Shown piece after piece: positions 1-53,937 of a stretch of DNA of 53,937 nucleotides. Source of the DNA: a virus (taxonomy: Duplodnaviria > Caudoviricetes); the IMG/VR virus record IMGVR_UViG_3300032325_000820, positions 1 through 53,937 of that record, one strand, 5' to 3'. The first letter of the stretch is position 1, and each line of letters begins with the position of its first letter. The notes under the pieces are model-generated. The model made no database searches. It saw only the letters and a list, made by a program, of their open reading frames with translations, and had not been told where the DNA came from. The position numbers and the translations under genes were made by a program.

Positions 1-123
1 AGGGGCGGCCGCTGCTGCTAGCGGTTCGGCTACTGCAGCGGGTTTATCGGCAGCAGGAGCTCTTGCTTCAGCCGGTGCAGCAGCGCTTTCAGCGGGTAGT
101 GCTTCAAGCTCGGCGTCCGATGC
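1..123. repeat. Terminal direct repeat, copy 1 (circular overlap)
   Basis: 1-123 identical to 53815-53937 (aggggcggcc...cgtccgatgc); unit length 53814 bp. Confidence 0.95.
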
Positions 124-418
124 TTCCTCTAGTGCTTCTGATGCCAGTCATTCTGCTAGCAGTGCCTCTACTTCAGCAACTAATGCAGCAAACAGTGCCA
201 CTGCGGCTCAAGACTACTTAAATACTCTTTTAAATACCGGATTAACTCTGCAAGGAGATGTAACCGGTAGCGGATTATTAAGTACGCCGATTGTTACCAC
301 ATTTAAACCTAATCCGGTATTTACCGGTAACGGCTCAATGACTATGCCTTCAGGTAATAATACTCAAAGACCTACTACCCTAATCCCCGGAATGATAAGG
401 TTTAACACTTCAGTTTAA
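2..418 (+). CDS. C-terminal part of tail fibre protein 1 (gene starts at 52667 and crosses the circular join; about 521 aa)
   Basis: Frame 2 open from base 2 to TAA 416-418; Ala/Ser heptads, then ...PSGNNTQRPTTLIPGMIRFNTSV*; in frame with ATG 52667 across the overlap. Confidence 0.85.
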   Translation, partial: GAAAAASGSATAAGLSAAGALASAGAAALSAGSASSSASDASSSASDASHSASSASTSATNAANSATAAQDYLNTLLNTGLTLQGDVTGSGLLSTPIVTTFKPNPVFTGNGSMTMPSGNNTQRPTTLIPGMIRFNTSV

Positions 419-1195: not shown

Positions 1196-2404
1196 ATGAA
1201 GCTTGAGTTTTTTGATGGGACTAGCTGGTATAGTGTTGCAAGTGAAAACTTTGTTAATACTAAGGTATTTGATATCAACTCAAATACTAGCGGTCAATTA
1301 AATATCAATCGTTTAAACGGTTATCCGGCCAGTAGCTCTGTTTATCTAAGAGGAGACGGTACTTGGGCTACTCCGGCGGGAAGCGGGACGGTAACCTCGG
1401 TAAACATTGCAGTCGGAAGCGGCCTAACTGTTAGCGGTAGCCCCATTACTACTAGCGGTACTATAACAGTTAATATTGGCAGTATAGCAATAACACAGAT
1501 AGCCGGCTATAGCGCTGCTCCTACCGATACTTTTGTCAGAGGCAATAATACCTGGAGTAAGATATATTCAAGTATTATTAATTTTGATACGGAACTAAAT
1601 AGCGCAGGGCAAAATATTAATGCTCAAACCGGAACATTAATTGCCAATAACCTTGCTGCTTATAATTCAGGGGTAATTGTTTGTGGACATGCTCTTAGTA
1701 TCCAAGACACCGGGACTTATAAACCTTATAACGGTAGTTACGGTTATTTAAGTTCTTCCGGAGGAACCGGAACGTCTACGGGTCAGAATCCATACTCCAT
1801 TAACTGCAACAATAGAGTCAAGGCTTCCGAGTTTAATGCCGTTTCTTCCATTAAAACCAAAAATATTGAATCTTCAGGCAAGTCCATAGAAGAGGAAGCG
1901 TTAAAGAGATTTAATAAAATACCTTTCTTTAAATATAGTTATAAAGATAAAATTAAAAATGGCCAAGGAGTAACTTTTGGCATTGTTGCCGAACCTTTAA
2001 AGGAAGTTTTACCTGATTATGTTTTGGAGGACAAAAGTTTTGTCCCTAATATATTGCAGTCCTGTTTAATTAAACCGATAACGGAATATAGTTACCACTT
2101 AGTATTTAAAGAAAAATTAACCAATATTGAAGGGAGTAAACTACAGTTAATTTTACTTAATAAATCAATTGAAGTAGAGATTTTAAAAACTACCTCAAAG
2201 CGGTTAATCATTTCCTGCTCTGAAAAACTACCAAACAATGGATTTGCCTACGGCACTTTTGAAACCTGTCCTTCAGTTACCAAAAATAAACTTTTTGAAT
2301 TATCCATGGTGGTATTAAAAAACACCTTAAAACGTGTAGATATGCTTGAGAATAAACTCCAATATCTACGATTCATTAACAACAATTTAGGAGAATTAAA
2401 ATGA
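1196..2404 (+). CDS. Tail fibre 3 with C-terminal intramolecular chaperone (peptidase S74-like) domain
   Basis: YLRGDGTW and GTVTSV fibre motifs; SSIKTKNI...Y.Y...FGIVAE.LKEVLPDYV S74-like region and terminal coiled coil. Confidence 0.75.
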   Translation: MKLEFFDGTSWYSVASENFVNTKVFDINSNTSGQLNINRLNGYPASSSVYLRGDGTWATPAGSGTVTSVNIAVGSGLTVSGSPITTSGTITVNIGSIAITQIAGYSAAPTDTFVRGNNTWSKIYSSIINFDTELNSAGQNINAQTGTLIANNLAAYNSGVIVCGHALSIQDTGTYKPYNGSYGYLSSSGGTGTSTGQNPYSINCNNRVKASEFNAVSSIKTKNIESSGKSIEEEALKRFNKIPFFKYSYKDKIKNGQGVTFGIVAEPLKEVLPDYVLEDKSFVPNILQSCLIKPITEYSYHLVFKEKLTNIEGSKLQLILLNKSIEVEILKTTSKRLIISCSEKLPNNGFAYGTFETCPSVTKNKLFELSMVVLKNTLKRVDMLENKLQYLRFINNNLGELK

Positions 2405-3255: not shown

Positions 3256-4386
3256 ATGAAAGATAGATATATTAACGACCTTTTAGCTAAACAAGCTTAC
3301 ATCTCAGATAATTTGGCTCGCAAAGACCCATTTGACAAGGCTATTAGAAAGGCTGTCGAATCGGCTAAGAAATCTATAAAAATGGATGAGGATCAGGAAG
3401 ATAAGGCACTTCGTAATAGCCTTTTAACTTGGTCTGAGGAAATGCACAAAATGCCGAGAACAAAAGGATTATTGGCTAATTTTGCTCAAGCCGGCAGAGC
3501 GTTGCTACCTGCATTAAAAACTCATGATATTTATGAAGATGCTGCCGAGGAAGAAAATTTAAAAATGCTGCAACATGCACAGCAGCAAAGAGCAGCAGAA
3601 GAGGCAAAAGCGGCTCAGTTAGAAGCAGCAGCTTACCAAAGAGAAATGGCAGATAAACAAATGGCTCACCAAGGGGCTATGCTAGAAGAGCAGAAGAGAT
3701 ATCATGACCAGTCTTTATTTGCAAAGCTTGCAAAAGCTGCGCAGAAAAAAGAGGGGGATTTCAAAGAATACGAAGGAAAAACTTATAGAACTTTGAATAA
3801 AGCTGACCAAAGTAAAGCCGGAGATGCTAAGGCTATTGCTAATGCTGCAGCTATAAAAGACCAGGATATGAATAAAAGTTTTGAAGATTTAGAGAAACTT
3901 GGAAAAGAGAATTGGTTTCATCCTTTAGGGCGAGGTTCTAGCATTATTAACCCTATAAAAGATACTATAGGTAATGTATTTGGGGTAGAAGATCTTCAAA
4001 AAGAAACGGCTTTAAGAAATTTGTTTATTGCCGAGCTTGGGCAATTAAGGACCATAGCCGAAAGATTAAATACCGGTACTAACGGTATAACTCAAGGAAT
4101 GTATGATCGATTGTCCCCGTATTTTGCCGATCCTAAGAATGATAGTCTTCCGACTTTAAAAATGAAAATAGATCATCTTTCAAAAGAAATTCAAGACATA
4201 CAAAAAGCAGCGACTATAAAACATGAGCAAGGCATTCATTTTGATGTCGGTGATTTAGAGACACCAACTATAGAATCAGATTTTGTTTTGATGCTTGACC
4301 CCAAAACAGGTAAAAAAGATTCTATTCATAAAAGCTGGGTGCAGGATGCTATAAATAAAGATGGTCTGCAGGTAGTAAATGAGTAA
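3256..4386 (+). CDS. Putative internal virion (DNA ejection) protein
   Basis: Helical, Ala/Gln/Lys-rich, no Cys; at the end of the tail operon. Confidence 0.5.
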   Translation: MKDRYINDLLAKQAYISDNLARKDPFDKAIRKAVESAKKSIKMDEDQEDKALRNSLLTWSEEMHKMPRTKGLLANFAQAGRALLPALKTHDIYEDAAEEENLKMLQHAQQQRAAEEAKAAQLEAAAYQREMADKQMAHQGAMLEEQKRYHDQSLFAKLAKAAQKKEGDFKEYEGKTYRTLNKADQSKAGDAKAIANAAAIKDQDMNKSFEDLEKLGKENWFHPLGRGSSIINPIKDTIGNVFGVEDLQKETALRNLFIAELGQLRTIAERLNTGTNGITQGMYDRLSPYFADPKNDSLPTLKMKIDHLSKEIQDIQKAATIKHEQGIHFDVGDLETPTIESDFVLMLDPKTGKKDSIHKSWVQDAINKDGLQVVNE

Positions 4387-6193
4387 ATTTGATAAATATA
4401 AAACTCCTAAAAATATAAATACAGATTATTCTTCTGATGAAAGAAGTAGTGTATTTGATAAATATCAGAGTCCCAAATCCATACCTAAAGAAGTATCGCC
4501 GAGACCGGATAGATGGTGGGGAGAAAAAGCAGCATTAAAAGGAGCAATGGATTTAGTTGATGCTCCGACTAATTTAGCTAACTTAGGAGAAACAGGAATT
4601 AAAACCTATTTAAATAAAACCGGTAATATGCTAAGAAAAGCTGCCGGCAGAGAAGCTATATCATATAATAATCCTAATTTCTTCAGTGAAGAAAACATGC
4701 CGAGAATATCTACTCATATAAAATCATTTGCCAAAAACAAAGGTATTGATTTAGAACCTAGATATAATACAAATTCAGAGCAATTTGTCGGTGAATTAAT
4801 AGGAAATGCTACAAGCGGTGGATTATTTGGAAAATTAAGCCAAGGAGCAAAAGCTTTGGAAGGAGCAAAAACGGCTGTTAAATTAGATTTAGGAAGTAAA
4901 GCTTTACAACAGAGCGGACTTGATCCTTTATATGCAGATATAGCGGTTAATTTTTCACCAAACGTTGCAAGTAAAGCAGCAAATATAATAAAACATCCCA
5001 AAGAAAAGATATATTACCCTTTGGGCAGAAAAATTTTAGGATTAACTCCCGATAAATTAGATAGTAAGGCATTAAAAGCTGCAAGAGATTTAGGCATAGA
5101 TTTACCTGCTGCGGCAGTTACCGATTCCAATTTAACGGGTCTTGCCGATCAATGGCTACAAAAAACTCCTGTTTTGGGTCATAAATTAAAAAATAAATAT
5201 ATTACTACTCAAGAACAAACAAAAAGAGCTTTAGAAGATATTTTTAACAAAACCGGTCCATCAAGAACTCCGGAAATAGAAGCTCAAATTGCGGGTTTAT
5301 ATGATAGAGCCGAAAAATCACTACCTCTTGATGCAAAGGTATTACCAGCTAATCTTAAAAAGGCTATTGATGATATTAAAATCAATACGGCTATTCTTTC
5401 TCCTGATGAAAAAAGCCTCCTGCAGTCACTTGAAACTATTAAAAACGAGATAGAGCCGGCATCAAAAATAATAAGTCAGTACGGACCTATAAAGTTACCG
5501 CTACAAGCGTATGACGTTAATAAACTCGTCGGTACTAAAAAAAGCCTAAATTCAATTATAAAATGGGATACGGACGCAGGGGTTAAAAAGCAGCTTAAAA
5601 AAATACAAAAAGCGATTTCGCAGGATATTAAAGAGTACGGCAACAGTAACCCGGAGTGGTATCAGACTTTTAAGGGTGCTGATAAATTATACGGCAATGT
5701 GGCAAAAAGAGAAAAACTCGAAAATATACTCGGGCATAAAGGAACAAACTGGACTTTTGAAGATTTAAAATATAATGCACTTGCCAAGGCAATAAATGAT
5801 CCTAAAAATTTTAAGATTATAAAGAAACAACTTACTCCGGAAGCTAACGAGCAAGTACAAAAATTAGGCACTGTAGCAAAAGCTATGGCATTAAAGAACG
5901 CTCGTATTCCCAACCCCTCAGGAACGGCAATAACTGCAAGTACTTTAGGGCTTATAGGAGGAGTTTATGCTAATCCTCTGCTAGCATTAAGCGGTTCGGG
6001 ACTTGGAACGGTAGGAGGGGGTTTAATAGCACGTGATTTATTAACTAATAAAAAGTTTTTAGACTTAAGCCTGCAAAATGCTGAGAAACAAGCAACTAAA
6101 TTACCTTTTAAACAACGTTATTATAACGAAATAACAGATAATTTACGCAAGCATTCTCCTCTCATTTTAACTAGGGAAGCTAACAGATTTTGA
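4379..6193 (+). CDS. Putative DNA ejection/transfer protein
   Basis: 604 aa, helical, no Cys; ALKAARDLGIDLP and NPSGTA motifs with Gly-rich hydrophobic C-terminal segment, as in podovirus ejection proteins. Confidence 0.6.
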   Translation: MSKFDKYKTPKNINTDYSSDERSSVFDKYQSPKSIPKEVSPRPDRWWGEKAALKGAMDLVDAPTNLANLGETGIKTYLNKTGNMLRKAAGREAISYNNPNFFSEENMPRISTHIKSFAKNKGIDLEPRYNTNSEQFVGELIGNATSGGLFGKLSQGAKALEGAKTAVKLDLGSKALQQSGLDPLYADIAVNFSPNVASKAANIIKHPKEKIYYPLGRKILGLTPDKLDSKALKAARDLGIDLPAAAVTDSNLTGLADQWLQKTPVLGHKLKNKYITTQEQTKRALEDIFNKTGPSRTPEIEAQIAGLYDRAEKSLPLDAKVLPANLKKAIDDIKINTAILSPDEKSLLQSLETIKNEIEPASKIISQYGPIKLPLQAYDVNKLVGTKKSLNSIIKWDTDAGVKKQLKKIQKAISQDIKEYGNSNPEWYQTFKGADKLYGNVAKREKLENILGHKGTNWTFEDLKYNALAKAINDPKNFKIIKKQLTPEANEQVQKLGTVAKAMALKNARIPNPSGTAITASTLGLIGGVYANPLLALSGSGLGTVGGGLIARDLLTNKKFLDLSLQNAEKQATKLPFKQRYYNEITDNLRKHSPLILTREANRF

Positions 6194-26351: not shown

Positions 26352-26357
26352 ATTTGG

Positions 26358-28060: not shown

Positions 28061-28306
28061 TTATGTCACTATTAAAGCGATGTTATAAGCATTTTTCAAT
28101 TTATCCTGAATATCATGTTCCTTATTATCAACTTTAACAAACGTACCTTGATCATTTAAGAGATAGAGTTCTTCTTCTTGTACTTTGACAAATAATATTC
28201 CATCTCTATAAATACCTACAAAATTGTCATGCATGCGATATTCTACTTGGCCTAGAGATACCATTACCGCAAGTACTGTTCTGACTAAATGTAAATACAA
28301 TTCCAT
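28061..28306 (-). CDS. TfoX N-terminal-like small protein
   Basis: LG.V.YRM.....GIYRDGILF..V....LYL resembles TfoX_N. Confidence 0.45.
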   Translation of the reverse strand: MELYLHLVRTVLAVMVSLGQVEYRMHDNFVGIYRDGILFVKVQEEELYLLNDQGTFVKVDNKEHDIQDKLKNAYNIALIVT

Positions 28307-28458
28307 TTATTGCCTTACTTTCAAAAATCAAATTTTGCATTATAGATAGAAAACCCATAATGTATATAAAAAAACCTTTTGGTAAATCCAAAAAAATAAT
28401 TTAAACTAGAATTAGTTAGAAGTTATTGTAAAACAATATTATTAATTAAATCTTAATT

Positions 28459-30346: not shown

Positions 30347-30447
30347 ATGGACAGATAATTAATTGTGATAATCAATCAAAGCTCAATAGCTGACATATTA
30401 CAACTAAGTGCAGTTAAAATTATGATATATTTTTTACTTATTGATTT

Positions 30448-31872: not shown

Positions 31873-31897
31873 AACTCAACCTCATTTTTTACCTATT

Positions 31898-31920
31898 TTA
31901 CCTGTAAATATTACAGGTAA
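31898..31920. promoter_or_regulatory. Palindromic operator candidate between divergent genes
   Basis: ttacctgtaa-ata-ttacaggtaa perfect 10-bp inverted repeat. Confidence 0.5.
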
Positions 31921-31981
31921 TTCTGTTTGGTTAAATATTTTTCTACAGTTAATATTTATAAGTTTTATTTATAAAATTTTT

Positions 31982-32296
31982 ATGACACACAAAAAGTTAT
32001 TGTGCGATACAACTGTTTTATATCCAAGGCTAAGAAATTTAGGAGTAAGAAAACCTATCTATTTATGGGCATTCCAAGAATTAATAATCAATTTAAAAAG
32101 TGATGAAGGCATAGTACGTGACAGTGATTTAGTATTGTGGTGGCCTAATATTAGTGAATCCACAAGATATCAAATACTAAGAATTTTAGTTTTTTACAAG
32201 ATAATTAACATCGAAAAAGACTCAGATGATAGAAGACAGCGACACATTGTTATCATTGTAAAATACCAAGATACTTTATACTCAGTAAATAATTAA
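31982..32296 (+). CDS. Winged-helix regulator
   Basis: ISEST.Y..L..LV...II......DDRR MarR-like wing. Confidence 0.6.
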   Translation: MTHKKLLCDTTVLYPRLRNLGVRKPIYLWAFQELIINLKSDEGIVRDSDLVLWWPNISESTRYQILRILVFYKIINIEKDSDDRRQRHIVIIVKYQDTLYSVNN

Positions 32297-32310
32297 AAAT
32301 TATCTATTTT

Positions 32311-32457
32311 ATGACCTCTCTCTTTTTCTACATTCTCTCTAAAATCCGCCAATTACTAGCATCAAGAGCTGAACATACACGAATTCGAGTAATAAAGGAA
32401 GCCTTACAAATTTACGCAGCAAGGCGGGGAATTAACCTAAATAAACAAAACAACTAA
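32311..32457 (+). CDS. Small ORF, 48 aa (MTSLFFYILSKIRQLL...KQNN)
   Basis: Open frame filling the gap and ending 5 nt before the next ATG; no clear RBS. Confidence 0.35.
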   Translation: MTSLFFYILSKIRQLLASRAEHTRIRVIKEALQIYAARRGINLNKQNN

Positions 32458-32462
32458 GGAAT

Positions 32463-32741
32463 ATGAATAAAGCACAAGAGATCAAGGTAGTAGCTTCAAG
32501 AATGAGGATGGTTTTAAGGCAAACTGAAGAGATGCCCATGGAGGCAATGTTTTGGCAAGATTTAAAGACTTTGCTTAACTTAATTCTAGAGGTAGGAGTC
32601 AATAGTGCAGACATTAAAACGATAGCCGAGAGATTAAGAAGAATGACTAAAGCAGGAGACCAAGCACTACTCCACGGCGTTTTCTGGGATGATCTAAATA
32701 CATTGTTGAATTTAATTTTAGAAGAGGGAAAGGATGAGTAA
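32463..32741 (+). CDS. Small protein made of two tandem ~43-aa repeats
   Basis: 2x IK..A.R.R...FW.DL.TLLNLILE.G. Confidence 0.65.
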   Translation: MNKAQEIKVVASRMRMVLRQTEEMPMEAMFWQDLKTLLNLILEVGVNSADIKTIAERLRRMTKAGDQALLHGVFWDDLNTLLNLILEEGKDE

Positions 32742-33042
32742 GGAGAAAGAGAGATTATATAAAATCATACTTACCCCAAGTCAGAGACGAGATTATCTGG
32801 CCATTGAGTTGTACTTGGATATAAAAGATAATTTAAAAAAAAATAAACAATCTATTTTTAAAACCAGTTATTCATATTTTACTAAAAAATATAAATGTTC
32901 CAATGAAAACATAAGAAAGAAGTTTGTTCTTCTAGAAAATCTTGGATTAATTAAAAGAAGTTTTACAGATGAGATTTCACCATCTGGTTATACAGCTAAT
33001 AATGTACTAAATCTAACTTTGTTAAGTGGAGGTAGAGCATGA
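32734..33042 (+). CDS. Winged-helix protein resembling the N-terminal module of rickettsial DnaA-N-like Rep
   Basis: TSY.YF..KY....E.IR..FV.LE.LGLIKR.F. Confidence 0.55.
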   Translation: MSKEKERLYKIILTPSQRRDYLAIELYLDIKDNLKKNKQSIFKTSYSYFTKKYKCSNENIRKKFVLLENLGLIKRSFTDEISPSGYTANNVLNLTLLSGGRA

Positions 33043-34454
33043 AAGCTGCCTCTAATGTATCCTACGTAGATTTTCAGAAAAAGAATCTTAGTGAAAAGGA
33101 TATTTATAATACGTGTTATGATAAATGGCTTGATATAAAAAGAGCTTGTGATCCATCAAAGACAATAGCATGTGAAGCTATTACATTTATCGCAGCTATA
33201 GAATTTCTTTTTTCAAAGAATCCTGATGAAGTTATTTTTAATAGTAAATTTCTTCAATCAAAATGTAAACAAGGAGCAAGACAGCGTAGTAGGTTTTTAG
33301 CTCAATTAGCTGATTTATACGAGATAACATCGCACACTTCATATAATTATAAAGAAAAAGAATATCATTTTGTCTACTCTGCAAAACGTACTAAAGATTC
33401 ATTAGAAATTTTAAAAAATCCAAAAGAATTTTATAGAAAAAGTGCAATAAAATTAGTTAAAACCTCTGACAAAAATGACTTGCATACAAGTCAAAAATGT
33501 CTGGTATCCCCGACAAATTTGTCCGCCATACATATCGCTAACCCAGCTTCTTCTCAAGGTTTGCAGGAACATAGAAACTCAGTAGAAACAGTAGTAGAAG
33601 ATAAACCCCTTAGCTACGCTAAAGGGGGTTTATCTTCGTATAAGTCTAGTATCTTAGAAACGGATACTAATACGCGCGCACGCGACCCTATCCAACAAAA
33701 GCACGCAACTTTTGCTCCTTGCTTGCTTACGCAGCTGGAGCAAGTTGCTCTTGTATCAGAAAATCAAAATAAACCAAACCGGTCTGTTACAAATTGTGAC
33801 AGGCTTCAACCAGCAAAGGAAACCCCAAGAATGAAACAAGACGATATTACGCTACTTGCGGATGAACAAACAAGAAAAATGCTACTCTCTCAAGCTCTAT
33901 GGAAGGCTTTAGGAGAAGAGCGAGCAGGTCAAATACAGGATGGTTGCATATTTAAGGAACTTGAGCCTGATAAGGTCGGTATTTACACAGGGGATACGCT
34001 TTTAAGCGATGTTGAAAAAGATAAAATCCCCAAAGCTATTAAGTCGGTTTATGGCCAAAACGTTAAAATTACGGGATTGAGGCTTGCCTCTAAGGCTAAG
34101 GAGCAGGAACACCCGAGTAACGATAATGCACAAGTTGATATAACCCCCAAACCAAGACCCGAGAAGCAAAATTGGTTAAAATTCAAATCCCTCATCATAA
34201 CCAGTAATCTGACCAACATGCTAAACAATCCCATGCTAAAAATTATTGAAATACCGGGCAAGGTGATTATAGAAACCGTACCTTTCCTGATTGAGCGACT
34301 AACAGCTCCGGGGCATATAGACGAACTTGAGAGAGTTATTTTAGAGACAGGTTTAACATTGGAATTATCACCTAGTAATCCTCATCCTGAATATAAGAAT
34401 TTTCACAAAGACCCGATAGTTCTAAGTCCTGAAAAGATATTGAGAGATCAGTAA
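33039..34454 (+). CDS. Second replication initiator paralogue
   Basis: N-terminus aligns by eye with 26433 (W..IKRA; V.FN.K; QL....I..H.S..Y..K.Y.F.Y); internal iterons. Confidence 0.6.
   Translation: MKAASNVSYVDFQKKNLSEKDIYNTCYDKWLDIKRACDPSKTIACEAITFIAAIEFLFSKNPDEVIFNSKFLQSKCKQGARQRSRFLAQLADLYEITSHTSYNYKEKEYHFVYSAKRTKDSLEILKNPKEFYRKSAIKLVKTSDKNDLHTSQKCLVSPTNLSAIHIANPASSQGLQEHRNSVETVVEDKPLSYAKGGLSSYKSSILETDTNTRARDPIQQKHATFAPCLLTQLEQVALVSENQNKPNRSVTNCDRLQPAKETPRMKQDDITLLADEQTRKMLLSQALWKALGEERAGQIQDGCIFKELEPDKVGIYTGDTLLSDVEKDKIPKAIKSVYGQNVKITGLRLASKAKEQEHPSNDNAQVDITPKPRPEKQNWLKFKSLIITSNLTNMLNNPMLKIIEIPGKVIIETVPFLIERLTAPGHIDELERVILETGLTLELSPSNPHPEYKNFHKDPIVLSPEKILRDQ
33468..33523. repeat. Three 12-bp iterons at 22-bp period (candidate origin)
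   Basis: gacaaaaatgac 33468, gtcaaaaatgtc 33490, gacaaatttgtc 33512. Confidence 0.6.
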
Positions 34455-46192: not shown

Positions 46193-46570
46193 TTAAGCTA
46201 AAATATAAGGAACTTTATATTTAATAATTTTCTCATCTCTAGTAATTATGGTTAAATTTTCAATTATAGCTTGAGATATAAGAAGTCTATCAAAAGGGTC
46301 GTCATGATGTTTATCTAAATTTTCGATAAAAAGCGTATGTTTAATTGCTATAGGTAATACGTCAAAACCACATTGTAATATGATTTCTTCTAAGTTACTT
46401 GGAACATTAAGTTTACCCAAAGATTTTTTAATAGTAATCTCCCACGTATTAACAGAACTAATAAAAATAAGATTGTTAGGATTACTGATAATTTGTTTAG
46501 ATTGATAAGATAAATTTAAATTATCCTCTATCCACCAAATAAATGTATGGGTATCTAATAAATAACTCAT
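46193..46570 (-). CDS. vapC: VapC PIN-domain toxin
   Basis: LLDTH..IW; S.V..WEI.IK..LGKL; HDDPFDRLLI.QA. Confidence 0.92.
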   Translation of the reverse strand: MSYLLDTHTFIWWIEDNLNLSYQSKQIISNPNNLIFISSVNTWEITIKKSLGKLNVPSNLEEIILQCGFDVLPIAIKHTLFIENLDKHHDDPFDRLLISQAIIENLTIITRDEKIIKYKVPYILA

Positions 46571-46806
46571 TATATTTTATCATAAAATTTAGATAATAAT
46601 TCAGGAGATAATTCGTCAAAATCTTCGGACATTTTAACTTTACCTTTGCAAATACCGGGTCTGCGGGGTGATAATAATTTTTGATATTTAATCAATCTAA
46701 CAATAGGTTTTCCTGCTTTACAAATGATAACATCTTCCCCGTCTTCCACTTTTTTTATTAAATTGGATAAATGAGTTTTAGCCTTATGTATTGTTGAAAC
46801 TTGCAT
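46570..46806 (-). CDS. Phd/YefM family antitoxin
   Basis: IH.AKTHLS.L...VE.GE.VII.KAGKP..RL. Confidence 0.9.
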   Translation of the reverse strand: MQVSTIHKAKTHLSNLIKKVEDGEDVIICKAGKPIVRLIKYQKLLSPRRPGICKGKVKMSEDFDELSPELLSKFYDKI

Positions 46807-46883
46807 TTTAGTAATTAATTTAAGTTAGTTCAGTTTAGACTAAGTTTAAATTTAATTCAACATAAAATATAACCGATACCGTC

Positions 46884-46912
46884 TTGATATTTTAATTTTA
46901 ATTTATTAAAAT
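46884..46912 (+). promoter_or_regulatory. Candidate sigma70 promoter of the capsid/tail operon
   Basis: TTGATA-17 bp-TAAAAT; the region is AT-rich, so a chance match is possible. Confidence 0.45.
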
Positions 46913-47101
46913 TAACTTAAAGCAAAAGTTTGCCACAACTATAAGGGCGTCTTTGAGTTTGTAGTTTTATCTCTGCAAAAAACTAGGTTTTTTTCCGCTA
47001 TTAAAGTCGGGAAGCTTTAAGCTTCATGGGTTCATCTAGCCTTCTAATAGATTAAAAATTTCAAATACTATTTTTAATAATAAATATTTTTAGGTAAATA
47101 T

Positions 47102-48223
47102 ATGGCTTATGGCGTAAATTCACCTTTTGGTTTAGTACCTTACGGTCATTTAATCAGCGGTGTTGATAATATAAAAACAAATAGTAATTATAAAATAAAT
47201 GCTAATAGTTATAGTTTAAATAAAGGAGACCCGGTTGTATATGCTCCCTCAAGTGGCACATATAGTTACGCTCAATCTGCTGCCGAGATTATGTTATATA
47301 ATCCTACTCCGGTTTTTGCAGCAGCATGGGCGGCCGGTACTCCTCTTAACGTAACAACTATTACGCATAACTCTGCGGCTCCCGGCGCAGCTGCCGTAGC
47401 TACTCCAAAACCGGCTATTCTTGGGGTGTTTCAGGGATGTGCTTATTACGCTCCTGACGGTACTTATATTGAACAAGAATACTGGGTAGCAGGAACACAA
47501 GTAAAAGCCGGAACTTATCCAACAGCTACAATCATTGATGATCCTTTTGTTATCTGGGATATACAACTTAGTTGCTACAGCGGAGCTTTAACGGCGGCAA
47601 ACACTACATTTGCTTTATTACCGTGTTTGCAAGTGCAAGATGGTACTTGGCCTGATACGGGAAATGCAAGTAATGCTCCGACCATAGGAAACAGCGCCGT
47701 TATCGGTAGCGGTATTGAATTAATAACCGGAAGTGCTATAGGCGCGACTAATAACAGTGCTTCATCAATGGCTACTATTACATTAAACGGAGCTGTGGCA
47801 GGTTATGCTAATAATCCACTTATTGCTAACTACGGCACAGCAAACGGTAATCCGTGGGGAGTATCTACTTTTTATGCTTGTCCGTCTTTAGCCGTCATTG
47901 CCCGTGCTAATGCCGCAACTACTGCTGCGGACATAAGCGGTGCGAACGAATATAATAGAAATCCTTATGTAGCATTAAACGTGGCTGCTCCGGCTAACTA
48001 TACGCAGAACACTTATGCGAGTTCTACTTTAGGAACAGGATTCGGTGCTACTCTTAAAGTACTTGGTTTTACGCCAAATGCTAAGAATGTACCGGGCACT
48101 TACGGTCAACCGGGTAATGCTAGAGCCGGCACTTATTACAATACTCCGTTCTTAAACGTACTTGTAACTATTAATAATCACGCAAAACTTCCAGGATTAA
48201 TGCCTGTGACTGTTACTGCCTAA
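47102..48223 (+). CDS. Capsid decoration/minor capsid protein
   Basis: N.PFGL.P; GD.V; GVFQGC.Y; DDP...Q motifs; Ala-rich insertions; immediately before MCP. Confidence 0.6.
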   Translation: MAYGVNSPFGLVPYGHLISGVDNIKTNSNYKINANSYSLNKGDPVVYAPSSGTYSYAQSAAEIMLYNPTPVFAAAWAAGTPLNVTTITHNSAAPGAAAVATPKPAILGVFQGCAYYAPDGTYIEQEYWVAGTQVKAGTYPTATIIDDPFVIWDIQLSCYSGALTAANTTFALLPCLQVQDGTWPDTGNASNAPTIGNSAVIGSGIELITGSAIGATNNSASSMATITLNGAVAGYANNPLIANYGTANGNPWGVSTFYACPSLAVIARANAATTAADISGANEYNRNPYVALNVAAPANYTQNTYASSTLGTGFGATLKVLGFTPNAKNVPGTYGQPGNARAGTYYNTPFLNVLVTINNHAKLPGLMPVTVTA

Positions 48224-48244
48224 AATATAATGAGGTAATATAAA

Positions 48245-49159
48245 ATGGCTATTAATACTCAATCGATTTATAATCTACTCCGCCCCGGATTAAAGGCGGT
48301 TATAGGTTTATATGAAGATTATCCTGATTTATGGAAGGAAATGTTTGAAACTTATCCTTCTGAGCGTGCCTTTGAATTTGAAGACGAAATCAGAGCGCTC
48401 GCTCCTGCCGTTGAAAAACTTGAAGGGTCATCCATAGCTCAAGATACAATGACAGTTAAATACCAAACGATGTATAAGCATAAAACTTACGGTACTTCGT
48501 TTAGTATAACCGATGAGGCTATGAATGATAACCTGTATAAAAATCTGTTTCCAAAACAGGCTAAGGCACTTGCTCAAGCTCTTAGGGAAACAAAAAATCA
48601 GATTGCTGCTAATATTTTAAATCTCGGTAATGTTATTACTACTGCAGACGGCTATCCTTTGTTTTCTGCTCATCCAATAGATGGGGGTGCTACTTCCAGT
48701 AATACGACTAACGTTGCTTTAAGTGAAATCGGTATTCAAAATGCCGTAACTGCGATTTCTCAGCTCAAGCAAATAAGCGGTACTTATGCGCAGGTTAAAT
48801 CAAAGAAATTGGTAACCGGTTCTAGCAATTGGATGGTAGCAGGTATTCTAATTGGCAGCCAATTTAGAACCTCTGTCGGTAGTGCTAACAACAATGCTTA
48901 TGCCGGTGTTAACGATCTTAACATGATAAATCATGATAGCGTTTTCCCGCAAGGTTATATTATCAATCCTTTTATTACTTCTCCGACGGCATCGTACATT
49001 ATTACTGATGCAGAAAGAGGACTTATTCACTATGAACGTGAAAAAATCAAGGATTGGTCTTGGATGGATAATACTACCAGGAGCATATGGTTTGCAGCGC
49101 AAGAAAGATATTGTTTCGGCGTATCTAACTGGCGTGGTGTATTCCAAATCGGTCAATAG
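48245..49159 (+). CDS. Major capsid protein
   Basis: L.PGL....G; S.RAFE; K.EG; IT.EA..DNLY; DG..LFS.HP; ERY.FG.S.WRG. Confidence 0.88.
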   Translation: MAINTQSIYNLLRPGLKAVIGLYEDYPDLWKEMFETYPSERAFEFEDEIRALAPAVEKLEGSSIAQDTMTVKYQTMYKHKTYGTSFSITDEAMNDNLYKNLFPKQAKALAQALRETKNQIAANILNLGNVITTADGYPLFSAHPIDGGATSSNTTNVALSEIGIQNAVTAISQLKQISGTYAQVKSKKLVTGSSNWMVAGILIGSQFRTSVGSANNNAYAGVNDLNMINHDSVFPQGYIINPFITSPTASYIITDAERGLIHYEREKIKDWSWMDNTTRSIWFAAQERYCFGVSNWRGVFQIGQ

Positions 49160-49176
49160 TTAATAAAAGGTAAGTT

Positions 49177-49290
49177 ATGGCAGTTCACAGTAGAGGCTTA
49201 GCTAACATTCTTCTAAAAAACGCTCCTAAAAAGGGCGTTAAGAAGGATAGTTCTAAGGAAATAAAAAAATCTGATAATAAAAAGAAATAA
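49177..49290 (+). CDS. Small Lys-rich ORF, 37 aa
   Basis: MAVHSRGLANILLKNAPKKG...KKK*; stop abuts the next ATG. Confidence 0.5.
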   Translation: MAVHSRGLANILLKNAPKKGVKKDSSKEIKKSDNKKK

Positions 49291-50031
49291 ATGAGTATTT
49301 TTAGACAAGCAGTAAATATTCCGACAGTAGCAAGCAGCACTGCTAATATCGGTACGTATAACGGTTTAATCCCGCCTACGCCGGGCAATTCGATTAATTT
49401 GACTTTAAACGGATCACTTGTAGGAATCAACGGGCAAGTCTCGTTTATTAGTAATGGCTATGCTTCAGGTTTAAGTTTTACTAGCGGATTAAACGTAAGT
49501 GCATCTACTTTTACAATAGTGGGTACTTATAATGGATTAATTATTCAAGAAAGTTTAGCAGGACCTAATAATAACACTGTTTATACTAATAATTTGTTTC
49601 ACACTATTATTAGCATCAGTGCTACCGGTGGAGGTGTAGCAAATGCTTTTACCATAGGATCAAATTATAATATTGCCGTGGTACTACCTGACGGTAATAG
49701 CAAAGCCGGACTTACCCATCCTAATTATACTTATAGTGTATTATTAAATTCTCTTACGGCAGCAGGCCAGTGGGCAGCAGGGAATGCTATAATATACGGA
49801 GTTTCCAATATTGCTCCGGTATCGCTGCAGGCATCTAATCTTACTTACGCAAACAGACCTAGTAATTATTTTTCATTACCGGTTACAGGGGCAGCATTGG
49901 CAGCTATTACCCAAGTGCAATTACAAAATGGTCTTATTGTCCAAACTACTTACCATTATGCTGCCGTAATTGTTTATCTAGCAGCTGGGATAAATACCAC
50001 TCCCGTTTATATTGAAATTTCGCAGGGTTAA
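49291..50031 (+). CDS. Virion structural protein
   Basis: FTI.GT..G....E.LAGPN motif; beta-rich. Confidence 0.6.
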   Translation: MSIFRQAVNIPTVASSTANIGTYNGLIPPTPGNSINLTLNGSLVGINGQVSFISNGYASGLSFTSGLNVSASTFTIVGTYNGLIIQESLAGPNNNTVYTNNLFHTIISISATGGGVANAFTIGSNYNIAVVLPDGNSKAGLTHPNYTYSVLLNSLTAAGQWAAGNAIIYGVSNIAPVSLQASNLTYANRPSNYFSLPVTGAALAAITQVQLQNGLIVQTTYHYAAVIVYLAAGINTTPVYIEISQG

Positions 50032-50033
50032 TT

Positions 50034-50222
50034 ATGGATAAGAATTGGATAGAAAAAGCGACTAAGAATAAAGGTGCGTTACATAAAGCTCTAGGTGTAG
50101 CTAGTGATAAAAAGATACCTGAGAAGAAACTTGATAAAGCTCTTCATTCTAAAAACATGAAAATAAGAAAAGAAGCAAGCTTGGACAAAACTTTAAGGAG
50201 TTTTAGAACTAGAGGCAAATAA
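50034..50222 (+). CDS. Small basic phage protein
   Basis: NWI..A.K.KGALH..LGV....KIP..KL.KA motif. Confidence 0.7.
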   Translation: MDKNWIEKATKNKGALHKALGVASDKKIPEKKLDKALHSKNMKIRKEASLDKTLRSFRTRGK

Positions 50223-51322
50223 TGGCTAAAGTTTCGGGTACTTATAATTTTCAGTCGCTTGCGAATGATGATCTGATTCTTGATTGTTTTGAGCGAATTG
50301 GCTTCGCCGGTGATCAATTAGTACCCGTTCAAATGCAATCTGCACAAAGAAGTCTTAATTTTTTACTTTTAGATTGGATTAATAAAAATATTAATTTATG
50401 GACAGTACATAAATTATATTTGTCATTAAATACGGGGCAGGGCAGTTATACTTTAGATACAAGTATTACAGATGTACTTGAAGTATTACTACGCCAATTT
50501 ACACGTCCATTAAATGGAACACCGCAATCTAATGATGATAACTATGATGGTTTAGGTGGAGGTGATCCAACATTACCTTTTACAGATACGTTAAACGCCG
50601 GTTGTCAACAAGATGTTGTAAATGGAAATATATCGTATGATTATGGGCAAGTTAATGGACAACTAACAAATGTTACACAACAAATAAATTTCATAGGTAT
50701 AAGTTCTAACACTGAAACTTTATACACATTAGTATTTGAAAGTTCAAATGATACTGTTACATGGACAAATTTACTAACTATTCCTACTCAAACGTTTAAA
50801 ACTGATGTTGTAGTTTGGTTTGATATATTAATGCCAGTTTCAGCTAGATATTATAGGGTTAGAGAAACTGGAGGAGCAACTCTAAGTATTCAAAAGTTAT
50901 ATTTTACTAATAATATAACTGATTTAAAAATGAGTCCTGTAAGTCGGGAATCGTATTTGTCTATTCCTCAGAAGTTTCAGCAAGGAAAACCTTCAGTTTA
51001 TTATTTTGATAAATCTTTGACTCCTAAATTAAATATTTGGCTAACCCCAAGTAGTAGTTATCAAGTTCTGCAGTATTCCTTCATACAAACCATGTACGAT
51101 GCAGGTACTTTTTTCAATACTACTTCAGTTCCTGCCAAAATGTATCCTGCTCTAGCTGCCGGTCTTACTTGGATGCTCGCTGTGAAATACAAACCAGAGA
51201 TGGCTGATAGCCTTAAAGCTCAATATGAGGAAACGTTTGATATTGCAACAAGACGGGATAGTGAAAATGTTGATTTGAAAATAGATTACGATGTATCAAC
51301 TTTTTATACGGATGGTGATTGA
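50222..51322 (+). CDS. Head-tail adaptor with inserted discoidin-like beta-sandwich
   Basis: SGT.NF; A.RSLN.L...W.N..INLW; S.D..TW; ARYYRVR; G.P..YY; AGL...LA.K. Confidence 0.7.
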   Translation: MAKVSGTYNFQSLANDDLILDCFERIGFAGDQLVPVQMQSAQRSLNFLLLDWINKNINLWTVHKLYLSLNTGQGSYTLDTSITDVLEVLLRQFTRPLNGTPQSNDDNYDGLGGGDPTLPFTDTLNAGCQQDVVNGNISYDYGQVNGQLTNVTQQINFIGISSNTETLYTLVFESSNDTVTWTNLLTIPTQTFKTDVVVWFDILMPVSARYYRVRETGGATLSIQKLYFTNNITDLKMSPVSRESYLSIPQKFQQGKPSVYYFDKSLTPKLNIWLTPSSSYQVLQYSFIQTMYDAGTFFNTTSVPAKMYPALAAGLTWMLAVKYKPEMADSLKAQYEETFDIATRRDSENVDLKIDYDVSTFYTDGD

Positions 51323-51337
51323 ACATAGGAAATCATT

Positions 51338-51565
51338 ATGAGACTTGAGAAACGTATATATCAGTGTGATCGTAGCGGAGAGATGCACGAGAAATTATAT
51401 AAACAACTTGAATGGGCTGGTGATCAGAAAATATGGACTGGGTTATGGGTTGCAAAAGAATATCTTGATAAACCACAGGAACAATTTAGAGCTCCAATTG
51501 CAAAAGATGATCCAAAACCAGTGCCGAATCCTAGACCTTTTACTTTAAATATGGATGAGGAATAA
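51338..51565 (+). CDS. Small conserved phage protein
   Basis: CDRSG...EW.G..TGL.V.....DKPQ...DP.PV.NPRP. Confidence 0.7.
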   Translation: MRLEKRIYQCDRSGEMHEKLYKQLEWAGDQKIWTGLWVAKEYLDKPQEQFRAPIAKDDPKPVPNPRPFTLNMDEE

Positions 51566-51635
51566 AAGGGATATTTTAACTCGTTTTACTTGAATTATTT
51601 TTATCAACACTACCTATGTTTTTAGGGAGATAATC

Positions 51636-52670
51636 ATGGATATAAATACAATTAGAGTATTATCTCTTGATGGAGGAGGGGTTAGAGGGGTAATAACTTC
51701 TACTTTACTTGATCTTTTCTGTAATCAAGCAGGCATACCAGGTAATCAGATATATAAATATTTTGATATTATCGCCGGTACTTCTATAGGCGGGATTCAG
51801 GCCTTGGCATATGCTAAAGGACTAACACCGTCTTATATTAAGAATATGTTAATAAATAATGCCTCTAGTATTTTTAATTGTACTTATCCGATTCCCGGAG
51901 GAGGGCAGGCGGGTTATGGAACCTGGAGCGGTTATTTAACCGGTATCTATAGTTCTTTATATTCACAAACCCCTTTAGCTAATTTGATTAATAGCAATTT
52001 TGGCACGGATACTATTAGTAGTTATCAAACAAATGTATTAGTGCCGGCTTTTCAGCGTTCAAATGAAGCAGGAACTACCAATGTACCTGTTTATTTTTCG
52101 AATGTCTCAAGTTCAATTGTTCCTTATTTATCCGGTCAAACTGAATTATCGGCAAATGTTGCGCTGGCAACTAGTGCTGCTCCCGTTTATTTTCCGCCTG
52201 CCGTATTTAATGGATGTACTTATGTTGACGGCGGAATTTTTTTAAATAACGCCTCAGCAATGGCTTTATCGGTACAAAGGGCAATAAAACCGACCGTTAA
52301 TCGTTTTTGTGTTCTCTCTATCGGGACGGGACTTGGTAGTATCGGTTATATTCCAGGTGAACCTGCAGCGGATGGATTAATACTTAGAGGAGCAGTTGAT
52401 AATCTTAATACGATAAAAATGGTGATGGACGTTTCTATGAGCGTTCCACCGGAAGGAGTATCGATAGAGCAGCAAATCATAGCTAATTATACCGTCGGTA
52501 ATTCTTATTATTGCAGAATGCAGTATCCGATTGATTTAAGCAGGGAACCGGATAGTTCCTTGGATAATTCCGATCCGGAGTTTATAGAGTATATGCAGGA
52601 TTCGGCTACTGCATATTTTAATAATAACTTAAATAATATTAATAATTTTATAGGGCATTTATTGGTATGA
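51636..52670 (+). CDS. Patatin-like phospholipase
   Basis: LSLDGGGVRG, AGTSIGG (GxSxG), ATSAAP.YF, DGG. Confidence 0.92.
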   Translation: MDINTIRVLSLDGGGVRGVITSTLLDLFCNQAGIPGNQIYKYFDIIAGTSIGGIQALAYAKGLTPSYIKNMLINNASSIFNCTYPIPGGGQAGYGTWSGYLTGIYSSLYSQTPLANLINSNFGTDTISSYQTNVLVPAFQRSNEAGTTNVPVYFSNVSSSIVPYLSGQTELSANVALATSAAPVYFPPAVFNGCTYVDGGIFLNNASAMALSVQRAIKPTVNRFCVLSIGTGLGSIGYIPGEPAADGLILRGAVDNLNTIKMVMDVSMSVPPEGVSIEQQIIANYTVGNSYYCRMQYPIDLSREPDSSLDNSDPEFIEYMQDSATAYFNNNLNNINNFIGHLLV

Positions 52671-53937
52671 GAAATGATGTTTTATATAATTTTATCTCAC
52701 CTATAACAGGACGCCTTCCTCTTACTAATAATTATATTTTAATAGGAGCACCTGATAACTTTTCTATCATGTCGCCAAAGTTAATAGACATGCAGCTTGA
52801 TATTATAAATATCAGGCATTACGTAGATAATATAGCAAACTCCAGTTTTATTATCGGTTTTCCTAATAATGATTTACCTAAAGCCCAAGTTCTAAGTAAT
52901 TTAGATAATGGCTTTTTGTTTAATACGGACGGTATAATTAGTACTCAAGGAGTAGTACCTCTTCCTAGCCTAGCTTATAAAAACATATGGATAGGTGATA
53001 GTAATAATTTAGCAAAACCTCAACCAACCATTACCATTGATAACCTACCAAATTTAGGAACTACAAGCATTAACGTGCCTAATCCTCTTGATCCAACTAA
53101 TCCAATTGTTATTTCAGGAGGTAAAATCTGGCACGGCACAGATTCTAACAGACCGGAAGAATCTAATGCCTTGTTAGTGGTAGAAGGAGATATTGCCTTA
53201 ATTAATTTCAGGTTTTTTAGCGCTAATTTTATTCTTGGAAAAGGTAACAGTGTACTGCAAACATTAATGCCCGGCTCACAATTTCTCTCAAATCTACCGG
53301 CAGGCTCTTGGATGCAAACAAGTGGAGCAGGGACTGGAGCAGTAGTAAGTGCGACTATACCACAAGGAGAAATATTAATGGGCGGTTTAAATAACGTGCC
53401 GGAAGCACGTCAAACTATAGATATTGCAAACCTACCATCCTTAACTGATGGGAGGGTCTGGCAAGGGGACGCAGCAAATAGACCGGTTGAAGTCCAGTTA
53501 AACCTTGCTCCAACCGATGCTACTTACATCATAAAAACTCCGAATGTCAATTTACCTGAGGCACAGGTATTAGAGGAACTAGGGATAGGAATGGCCAAGA
53601 TTGTTGCCGGCGGGGCATTTGCTATTGCTATCGCCGGCGAGGATTACGCTACTGTCGCGCAGTTAGAAGAAATTAGAGATCAATGCCAGCAGTATGCAGA
53701 GCAGGCAGCTACTTCAGCGGAGGAAGCTGCAACCTCAGCAGGCGAGGCGTCAACTTCTGCTGGTGAAGCCACTGCATCGGCGGCAGAGGCTACGGGAGCA
53801 GCAGCGGAAGCAACAGGGGCGGCCGCTGCTGCTAGCGGTTCGGCTACTGCAGCGGGTTTATCGGCAGCAGGAGCTCTTGCTTCAGCCGGTGCAGCAGCGC
53901 TTTCAGCGGGTAGTGCTTCAAGCTCGGCGTCCGATGC
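52667..53937 (+). CDS. Tail fibre protein 1, N-terminal part (continues at 124-418)
   Basis: ATGA overlap with patatin; repeated LP.L...IW.G...N.P modules; stf-like Ala/Ser heptads; no stop before the window end. Confidence 0.8.
   Translation, partial: MRNDVLYNFISPITGRLPLTNNYILIGAPDNFSIMSPKLIDMQLDIINIRHYVDNIANSSFIIGFPNNDLPKAQVLSNLDNGFLFNTDGIISTQGVVPLPSLAYKNIWIGDSNNLAKPQPTITIDNLPNLGTTSINVPNPLDPTNPIVISGGKIWHGTDSNRPEESNALLVVEGDIALINFRFFSANFILGKGNSVLQTLMPGSQFLSNLPAGSWMQTSGAGTGAVVSATIPQGEILMGGLNNVPEARQTIDIANLPSLTDGRVWQGDAANRPVEVQLNLAPTDATYIIKTPNVNLPEAQVLEELGIGMAKIVAGGAFAIAIAGEDYATVAQLEEIRDQCQQYAEQAATSAEEAATSAGEASTSAGEATASAAEATGAAAEATGAAAAASGSATAAGLSAAGALASAGAAALSAGSASSSASD
53815..53937. repeat. 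Terminal direct repeat, copy 2
   Basis: Identical to 1-123. Confidence 0.95.

Follow-up and report, generated by a model that had tools for sequence, protein, structure and literature searches.

A conserved patatin–tail fiber gene cassette in an uncultured tailed phage

The DNA analyzed here (the window) spans an entire IMG/VR virus record of 53,937 nucleotides, IMGVR_UViG_3300032325_000820, in which a gene for a patatin-like phospholipase overlaps the start of a tail fiber gene. A 123-nt direct terminal repeat (1–123 = 53815–53937) is an assembly overlap; its subtraction gives a genome of 53,814 bp, which is circular or terminally redundant. The plus strand carries the small and large terminase, portal, and major capsid protein genes, and a structural string that runs from 47102 across the repeat to 6193. 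The patatin lies in this co-directional string, bearing out the original prediction of an intact patatin in the late operon that shares an ATGA with the first fiber gene (Table 1). A promoter and terminator scan of 46500–53937 returned counts equal to the shuffle expectation, with no excess.

The patatin gene and fiber gene 1

Patatins are recognized by a G-G-G-x-[RK]-G oxyanion motif, a G-x-S-x-G nucleophile elbow, and a catalytic Asp in D-G-[GA]. In the window protein these correspond to G13GGVRG18 (oxyanion hole), G48TSIG52 (nucleophile), and D198GG200 (catalytic Asp), and the protein matches Pfam PF01734 at E 8.6e-27 and 95 bits (cutoff 27.7) over profile positions 1–185 of 191, as well as phrog_25573 (E 8.4e-16). 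Across 35 relatives, with identities down to 38%, residues D12, G13–15, G18, G48, S50, G52, D198, and G199 do not vary, and the catalytic Ser and Asp are retained at 30% identity in the patatin of MAnkyphage_25.80 (GenBank OP381185), a phage of Megaira polyxenophila. The ratio of nonsynonymous to synonymous substitution rates (dN/dS) is 0.05–0.11 against 6 relatives, three more distant pairs being saturated, and by this codon measure the gene is under purifying selection. Together, the invariant Ser/Asp/oxyanion motif and the low dN/dS argue for a working hydrolase. No signal peptide, transmembrane segment, or hydrophobic segment was found in the 344 residues. An AlphaFold2 model (predicted local distance difference test 85.9; predicted template modeling score 0.88) has its best fold matches among effectors of cyclic-oligonucleotide-based antiphage signaling systems (CBASS), namely CapV (template modeling score [TM] 0.72–0.76, full length, 24% identity) and also CapE; plant patatin comes next (TM 0.68–0.73), and ExoU and VipD are remote (TM 0.31–0.43). 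A PDB profile search gave the same order, with CapV-type structures at E 2.5e-39 to 8e-34 and plant patatin at E 6.6e-25. As judged from sequence and model, the protein looks like a soluble, CapV-like phospholipase or acyl-hydrolase that is capable of catalysis.

The sequence at 52665–52672 is GTATGAGA, in which the fiber ATG at 52667 overlaps the patatin TGA at 52668–52670, an arrangement that probably couples translation of the two genes. Fiber gene 1 wraps through the terminal repeat (52667 to 53937, then to 418) and encodes 521 aa. Its identity as a fiber follows from weak PHROG tail-fiber matches, from homology of its N-terminus to the annotated 'tail Fiber' of MAnkyphage, and from the two fiber-like genes that lie 3′ to it.

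Table 1. Features at and around the patatin–fiber locus of the window
Feature	Position	Strand	Detail or basis
Upstream structural genes, same co-directional string	47102..51322	+	373 aa; major capsid; 246, 62, 366 aa
Major capsid protein	48245-49159	+	Phage_capsid_4 E 8.4e-14; phrog_371
75-aa open reading frame 5′ of patatin	51338..51565	+	No hydrophobic segment, no Pfam or PHROG match
Shine-Dalgarno-like AGGGAG, 6 nt 5′ of patatin ATG	51624..51629	+	Sequence reading
Patatin-like phospholipase gene, 344 aa, ATG start	51636..52670	+	Intact open reading frame
ATGA, fiber start overlapping patatin stop	52667..52670	+	Sequence reading
Tail fiber gene 1, first 423 codons	52667..53937	+	PHROG tail-fiber families E 2.6e-5
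Conserved fiber N-terminal domain, ~110 aa, motifs NFISPxTGR and SPxLIDxxLD	52667..52996	+	Alignment of relatives
Fiber residues 39-56, LIDMQLDIINIRHYVDNI	52781..52834	+	~14 residues here missing in the fibers of six patatin-less relatives
End of fiber gene 1	1..418	+	PHROG tail fiber, minor tail families E 2.7e-6
Second fiber-like or structural protein, 236 aa	460..1170	+	16 PHROG families including tail fiber, virion structural; best E 6.3e-20
Third fiber- or spike-like protein with endosialidase-chaperone (Peptidase_S74) domain	1196..2404	+	Pfam PF13884 E 1.3e-5
604-aa protein, homolog of the large protein preceding patatin in MAnkyphage-type genomes	4379..6193	+	

Conservation of the patatin–fiber pair

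The patatin and fiber gene 1 form a conserved two-gene cassette that is transferred as one unit among phage backbones that are not related. An alignment of 35 patatin sequences, used to scan IMG/VR, retrieved 194 relatives, the best 80 of which were kept and correspond to 79 distinct loci. A hidden Markov model (HMM) of the fiber N-terminal domain, built from the first 130 residues of the fiber, places this domain 3′ of the patatin in all 76 loci with at least 200 nt of downstream sequence, the other 3 being too short; in 72 of the 76 its start is no more than about 18 nt from the patatin stop, and in 4 it lies 183–566 nt away. The patatin and the downstream open reading frame (ORF) share an NTGA start/stop overlap in 66 of the 79 loci, and the patatin/fiber overlap is present in MAnkyphage, in G001 (a contig of a Rickettsiaceae metagenome-assembled genome [MAG]), and in G354 as well. 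With this frequency and the 76-of-76 linkage, the overlap is not a matter of chance. The reverse scan with the fiber N-domain returned 163 relatives; among the 79 assessable loci of the best 80, the patatin lies directly 5′ in 73. In the window, the patatin falls inside the phage patatin clade described below and the NFISPxTGR/SPxLIDxxLD domain begins at the overlapping ATG.

Upstream of the patatin the context changes, with at least nine unrelated gene clusters among 78 loci, exemplified by the terminase in MAnkyphage, large internal-type proteins in G001, and the 75-aa ORF in the window. The 75-aa ORF is kept in five relatives (G407, G410, G413, G414, and G417) that have the structural backbone of the window in common (terminase, portal, capsid, and tail genes; 29–76% identity) and is part of that backbone, outside the cassette. 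In contigs of two freshwater runs, a different 35- to 36-nt sequence stands in place of the 91-bp spacer 5′ of the patatin (51544–51636), and the backbone/cassette junction is therefore variable.

The 6 of 79 fiber N-domain loci that have no patatin belong to one clade with a window-type backbone and thus count as one evolutionary event. Comparison of the N-termini shows that their fibers are without about 14 residues of the LIDxxLD stretch. In these loci (L239, L243, L244, L247, L248, and L252), the patatin slot, at about 2030–2500, holds a protein of 72–155 aa whose N-terminus is hydrophobic and rich in Cys.

Among 50,697 phage records, the fiber N-domain was found in MAnkyphage only, and patatin relatives were found in eight: MAnkyphage (30% identity, E 5e-34), six Wolbachia phage WO records (26–28%), and one 635-kb uncultured phage. 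A protein search with the patatin returned 4,177 relatives, the best of them on phage-size metagenome contigs, and its nearest Atlas clusters are 87–88% viral. The patatin tree (119 rows, 316 columns, LG+G4, quick search) held the window sequence, 31 of the 79 viral patatins (hand-chosen beforehand), 3 MAnkyphage-type, 2 WO, and 1 jumbo phage sequence, 5 patatin homologs on other Rickettsiaceae contigs, which we take to be Pat1/Pat2, and bacterial sequences from 76 of 79 loci, those whose ORF measures 250–700 aa. All fiber-linked patatins fall in one clade (Shimodaira–Hasegawa-like approximate likelihood ratio test [SH-aLRT] 99), with the MAnkyphage type nested inside; the WO patatins are placed among bacterial patatins outside this clade, and those on other Rickettsiaceae contigs form a separate group. 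Forcing WO and the fiber-linked clade together costs 46.4 log-likelihood units with P = 0.068 in the approximately unbiased test, so that a joint clade is not rejected, and separate recruitment of the WO and fiber-linked patatins is favored by the tree but not shown. The original prediction had seen in the window a case of convergence in a phage unrelated to WO. The pair is not isolated, being present in MAnkyphage and in 76 of 76 loci, and convergence can apply at most relative to WO; the phylogeny against WO and the Rickettsiaceae patatins, which had been suggested as a check, gave the separate placement with the same reservation about WO.

These data bear on the suggestion that the patatin has a non-lipolytic or accessory role, as a fiber-assembly helper, as a decoy resembling CapV that captures the cyclic nucleotides of CBASS, or as a passenger (moron) gene carried along with the fiber gene. 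In favor of such a role are the full-length structural likeness to CapV, the existence of phage counter-defenses against cyclic-nucleotide signaling, and the position of the patatin beside a frequently exchanged fiber gene. We nevertheless consider such a role very unlikely: the catalytic Ser/Asp and oxyanion motif are invariant under a low dN/dS, the 76-of-76 linkage over at least nine upstream contexts is stricter than a passenger would show, and known fiber chaperones are usually encoded downstream of the fiber gene. Moreover, a six-frame search of the window with the SMODS profile PF18144 (CD-NTase cyclase) gave no match, and no cyclase family appeared in Pfam scans of 70 window ORFs.

Lysis genes and the role of the patatin

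The original prediction recognized no lysozyme, amidase, or holin in the window and called for an HMM scan of all ORFs. In Pfam scans of 70 ORFs (for 20 of which only families with E below about 3e-6 are covered) and a PHROGs scan of 60 ORFs, no lysozyme, amidase, transglycosylase, peptidase-type lysin, holin, or spanin was found, so that at HMM sensitivity no canonical lysin is recognizable among the hypothetical ORFs. Searched in all six frames, the window gave no match to PF00959, PF01510, PF01464, PF05838, or PF13539, HMMs of the relatives' lysis cassettes (GH24 and three small membrane proteins) reached E 0.12 at best (GH24, 1.2), and the small ORFs of the window carry no lipobox. A hidden-lysin test across 16 genomes found no protein cluster present in at least three lysin-less and at most one lysin-bearing genome. 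PDB sequence searches of ORFs 18933–20417, 17907–18848, and 2401–2823 gave nothing below E 0.048; the MAnkyphage GH24 endolysin matches the PDB at E values down to 1.6e-24.

The related genomes present a different picture. Of 23 records searched, PF00959 matched 14: 12 of the 20 IMG/VR relatives, MAnkyphage, and the Rickettsiaceae MAG, where the patatin-bearing contig is itself among the matches. One further IMG/VR relative has GH108. A canonical lysin (GH24 or GH108) thus lies far from the patatin in at least 13 of the 20 related records and in MAnkyphage. The six-frame tool missed PF24175 in the window although hmmscan matched it, a caveat for the six-frame lysin negatives of the window too, and because such a search can miss families, 13 of 20 is a lower bound and negatives in relatives mean "not found" rather than "absent." In G403, whose patatin is 83% identical to that of the window, the GH24 gene is 30 kb from the patatin, so that one patatin subclade occurs both with GH24 and, in the window, without it. 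Among the five relatives with the window's backbone, GH24 was found in G413, G414, and G417, and no lysin was found in G407 or G410. In the two inspected, G413 and G417, the GH24 gene directly follows the last tail gene; in G413 it is flanked by ORFs of 58 aa on one side and 162 aa on the other, both with a hydrophobic N-terminus, and near that of G417 similar N-terminal-hydrophobic ORFs of 70 aa (on the opposite strand) and 219 aa (one gene further) are found. No homologs of these cassette proteins were found in the window. The patatin is present irrespective of a lysin, which argues against its being the family's endolysin replacement, and on the distribution of these genes it is no general endolysin substitute.

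The patatin could instead be a lysis-phase membrane disruptor. In such a scheme, a late cytoplasmic patatin, once activated, would attack the phospholipids of the inner membrane from the inside and then, possibly, the outer membrane, replacing the holin and/or spanin or the whole lysis system of this phage. The absence of a recognizable endolysin, holin, and spanin from the window and the position of the gene in the late structural string fit this explanation, and the nearest solved relatives of the patatin, CapV and CapE, are cyclic-nucleotide-activated patatin phospholipases that kill cells by degrading the membrane from inside. Release of virions through the peptidoglycan sacculus, however, requires more than membrane destruction. 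Against a lysis role also stand the canonical lysins kept at a separate locus in most relatives and MAnkyphage, the GH24 genes among small ORFs with N-terminal hydrophobic segments in genomes with the window's own backbone (G413 and G417), the mixed patatin subclade, and the lack of any reason in this scheme for the invariant coupling to the fiber N-domain. The same role has been proposed for WO in the cited passages (PMC9203015, PMC3173496). We regard a lysis-phase function as possible but rather doubtful.

We favor, with about even confidence, a fiber-coupled and probably virion-associated phospholipase that acts on membranes at entry. Under this proposal, for which we infer translational coupling, virion association, a lipid substrate, and action at entry, the patatin would be made late with its translation coupled to that of the fiber through the ATGA overlap; it would work together with the fiber, most likely on the virion through the conserved fiber N-terminal domain; and it would hydrolyze membrane glycerolipids at the surface breached by the short-tailed virion at infection. 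A joint function with the fiber accounts for four features that a role in lysis leaves unexplained: strict linkage to one fiber N-domain on different backbones, a coupled start, partial loss of that domain where the patatin is missing, and independence from lysins. A predicted complex of the patatin with fiber residues 1–130 scored 0.00 in two runs without controls, which speaks neither for nor against binding. The earlier proposal of a phospholipase-based exit or entry is weakened, in the sense of a replacement for an endolysin, by the lysins of the relatives.

Several observations weigh against action of a virion-borne patatin at entry. The location of the patatin on the virion is something that we infer, and its likeness to CapV and CapE, which are cytoplasmic, act on their own cell's membrane, and are ligand-activated, would by analogy fit a lysis-phase role at least as well. 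The small protein with a hydrophobic N-terminus in the patatin slot of six relatives could hint at a membrane or holin-like function of that slot, as the lysis explanation would have it. In 7 of the 20 relatives, among them 5 with a completeness of at least 90%, no recognizable lysin was found. Host lysis without one is a puzzle for this phage and for at least five relatives with apparently complete genomes (G404, G405, G407, G410, and G419), and in this phage the patatin may have a role in exit. The histories of the patatin and the fiber N-domain are also partly discordant, with a Spearman correlation of 0.35–0.39 over 2,427–2,485 non-independent pairs from 71 loci (9 dropped). Loci L019–L023 are 63–76% identical to the window in the patatin but 33–42% in the fiber N-domain, and L026–L036 are about 43% identical in the patatin but 56–71% in the fiber N-domain. 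Such swaps show that the two genes recombine and are no tightly co-adapted pair.

Host links, other genes, and known systems

The original prediction placed the phage in an intracellular host, which is plausible, though the links to Rickettsiaceae, through MAnkyphage and two genomes, are indirect. The host of MAnkyphage as deposited is Megaira. A scan of genome contigs with a single patatin query found nothing; with an alignment query, over one genome for each of 185,579 species, the only family-level patatin, at 34% identity and E 1e-54 (next best 1e-29), was on a 42.7-kb, MAnkyphage-like contig of a Rickettsiaceae MAG. In a profile search, such a patatin occurred in 2 of 31 sampled Rickettsiaceae genomes and in 0 of 400 other genomes of the phylum; the second contig is 57.8 kb long and carries a ParB-methylase 66% identical to that of the window. 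The capsid protein counts against a Rickettsiaceae host, with one weak match (31% identity) among 401 Rickettsiales genomes. Metagenomes from lakes, fresh water, and drinking water in about 13 studies other than the possible source also contain the lineage (shares 0.22–0.28; three runs confirmed), and this broad freshwater occurrence fits a free-living host as well. Related viral loci have a G+C content of 29–42%. In metatranscriptomes, one library contains short contigs 85–95% alike over parts of the capsid, patatin, and fiber genes; these may stem from DNA carry-over and give no timing of expression. A chlamydial host, prompted by a Pfam 'Protochlamydia outer membrane protein' match of ORF 20566–21528, was dropped because the Atlas neighbors of this ORF are omptin/Pom barrels from many phyla.

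If the host lives inside protists, the phospholipase could be directed at eukaryotic membranes. A large, wholly uncultured group of freshwater phages of cytoplasmic protist endosymbionts (Rickettsiaceae such as Megaira) would then carry a structural, fiber-mounted phospholipase whose target is the eukaryotic membrane between virion and host, for escape from a phagosome or endosome or for exit from the eukaryotic cell; Rickettsia Pat1/Pat2 and the phospholipase A2 (PLA2) domain of parvovirus VP1 are parallels. The named relatives are all linked to Rickettsiaceae, and five window proteins are 51–73% identical to those of MAnkyphage. Patatin-bearing fiber-like proteins of polinton-like viruses of protists, in which patatin is fused to carbohydrate-binding discoidin domains, are read by their authors, in the cited passages, as serving entry or endosomal escape (PMC12220804). 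On the other side are the poor representation of the capsid protein in Rickettsiales genomes, a freshwater distribution that also suits abundant free-living hosts, a fold nearest to bacterial CapV with the eukaryote-directed ExoU and VipD remote, and the clustering of Rickettsiaceae chromosomal patatins elsewhere in the tree. We judge a eukaryotic target to be unlikely.

The remaining genes of the window describe the phage as a whole. No tape measure, tube, or sheath family was matched by the window ORFs in the family scans, so that "podovirus-like," as the phage had been called, is fair; the Pfam SU10_adaptor family was matched in a pooled scan of window ORFs. The 604-aa protein of Table 1 is 31% identical over 482 aa to MAnkyphage 24971–26941 and, from its position in the gene order of G001, is likely an internal or ejection protein. 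A tail/virion gene block occupies 6306–11837 on the minus strand, with PHROG virion structural matches for ORFs 9598–11169 and 11169–11837. This five-gene block adjoins the end of the plus-strand operon, with 113 bp between them, and is inverted relative to G410 (28203–34339), where it lies on the same strand after the internal-protein genes; in G413 and G417 this block is immediately followed by the GH24 gene and its neighbors. Amid the structural string, on the opposite strand, is a PIN toxin/Phd antitoxin pair (46193–46806) that is 92–100% identical in L003 and L005. The window further encodes RecE/RecT-type recombination proteins, a DUF1064 resolvase-like protein, ParA, and two DNA methylases. 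The ParA-like partition ATPase followed by an 81-aa ORF (12479–13335, plus strand) and a short 179-aa integrase-family ORF (17082–17621, minus strand) are suggestive of a prophage maintained like a plasmid, or of an integrase that has decayed. In G413, the large terminase homolog is split into two ORFs (4439–5203 and 5918–7108; 254 and 396 aa) about 700 bp apart, which could reflect an intron, intein, or homing-endonuclease insertion.

Several membrane and accessory proteins are encoded elsewhere. A CCDC90-like coiled coil with a C-terminal hydrophobic anchor (27626–27970, minus strand) has homologs in G403, G405, G407, G408, G410, G412, and the Rickettsiaceae MAG contig; this conserved membrane-anchored protein is a candidate for a lysis or membrane function. 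Multi-pass transporters are found on the minus strand at 29042–30346 (MFS/sugar-transporter-like, 7 hydrophobic segments, phrog_2034) and 30448–31872 (sodium:solute symporter; SSF, E 6.5e-22), with homologs in the related phages G404 and G410. In Rickettsiales genomes the symporter domain has up to 10–12 paralogs, encoded by open frames some 580–970 aa long; the best match is 37% identical, and the symporter, considered as an indicator of host, does not decide it. ORF 20566–21528 (minus strand; 320 aa) has an N-terminal hydrophobic segment, a Pom/omptin-type β-barrel match (PF17251, E 3.1e-20), and a homolog in G405; its Atlas neighbors are omptin proteases, and its product may be an outer-membrane protein or protease of the phage. 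ORFs 13458–15923 (821 aa, phrog_3964, weak protease PHROG match) and 15926–16894 (a 322-aa ATPase; phrog_3757 and several ATPase PHROGs) adjoin each other on the minus strand and are probably the source of the pooled Pfam matches to Peptidase_S8 (E 3.8e-61), AAA (E 1.5e-32), and nSTAND3; they could form a defense or exclusion module or include a processing protease. An HD_4 (RelA/SpoT-type hydrolase-like) protein (28459–29124, plus strand; E 1.7e-21) and a ProQ/FinO-domain RNA-binding protein (22046–22462, minus strand; E 5.6e-21) are also present. ORF 17907–18848 (minus strand; 313 aa) has no family match and contains three nucleotide repeats of about 76 nt spaced 207–237 nt apart (67–88% identity), which imply internal protein repeats of about 70–80 aa; its 494-aa neighbor, 18933–20417, had no match in any search.

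The named phage most like the window is MAnkyphage. Its patatin, within the same clade of 99% support, overlaps its fiber gene by 4 nt, and the first 100–140 or so residues of the fibers are homologous. The five further proteins in common are a RecE-like exonuclease (73%), a phrog_2300 protein (70%), DUF1064 (64%), the CCDC90-like membrane-anchored protein (61%), and ORF 24930–25643 (51%). MAnkyphage differs in its size of 38 kb, its T7-like tail genes (gp11 and gp12 as annotated), the terminase directly 5′ of the patatin, and its GH24 endolysin, whereas the structural backbone of the window is a different one and a lysin is not recognizable in it. A review names MAnkyphage, in the passage cited, without further detail (PMC10925606), and the literature search turned up no paper that takes up its patatin–fiber pair.

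To our knowledge, discussion of patatins in phages has so far been almost confined to Wolbachia phage WO, where the enzyme is guessed to stand in for lysis genes that are missing. WO is described in the cited passages as having a "patatin-based lytic cassette," with the patatin at the edge of the tail genes, no conserved endolysin or holin found, and a role in membrane exit or entry proposed (Bordenstein & Bordenstein 2022, PMC9203015; Kent et al. 2011, PMC3173496), a role that the original prediction had also mentioned; further proposals on its role are made in PMC4701759. On that description, WO, which infects an intracellular alphaproteobacterium, resembles the window in the placement of its patatin next to tail genes. 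WO is, however, a P2-like myovirus whose patatin closes the tail module, preceded by gpD, an ankyrin protein, and a small holin-like ORF, and overlaps no fiber gene, whereas the window patatin precedes a fiber gene. The WO-type layout, with a small single-transmembrane holin-like protein and ankyrin neighbors, does not recur in the window, where no Ank_2 match was found and the 75-aa ORF upstream of the patatin is without a hydrophobic segment.

Other lipolytic systems offer partial parallels. CapV and CapE are the closest solved structures by both profile and fold, of the same size and with the same catalytic dyad; they operate with a cyclase partner, whereas the patatin gene here lies in a virion structural operon coupled to a fiber gene. 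The same catalytic core is found in ExoU, VipD, and Rickettsia Pat1/Pat2-type proteins, which are secreted patatin effectors with a role in breaching host membranes. Mycobacteriophage LysB, a cutinase-like lipid esterase that attacks the outer membrane and is encoded beside LysA and the holin, is likewise a phage lipolytic enzyme but, unlike the window protein, is no patatin and has no fiber link. Polinton-like viruses, as the cited passages describe them, share with the window a lipolytic patatin physically tied to a receptor-binding or fiber protein, but they are eukaryotic viruses and the tie is a domain fusion rather than two overlapping genes (PMC12220804). In lake viromes, patatin has been listed, in the part of that study cited, as a putative auxiliary gene (PMC9469726). 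A full-text literature search found no account of a conserved patatin–fiber cassette in tailed phages.

The association of a patatin with one fiber N-terminal domain in at least 194 IMG/VR viral contigs is thus an arrangement unlike that of WO and much more widespread, and one that usually coexists with an ordinary endolysin. It turns a vague notion of exit or entry into a testable claim, that the enzyme is in the virion and bound to the fiber. If this is true, the patatin would represent a new class of tail-associated enzyme acting on lipids instead of polysaccharide or peptidoglycan, and, were the target eukaryotic, it would be a counterpart of the parvovirus capsid PLA2 and of Rickettsia Pat proteins and the first phage virion enzyme directed against a eukaryotic barrier. 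The cassette may also mark a hidden group of phages of intracellular freshwater bacteria, since its sole host links are to Rickettsiaceae endosymbionts of protists. Regardless of its target, the patatin–fiber cassette is a widespread new form of the known theme, exemplified by WO, of a phage patatin near the tail genes.

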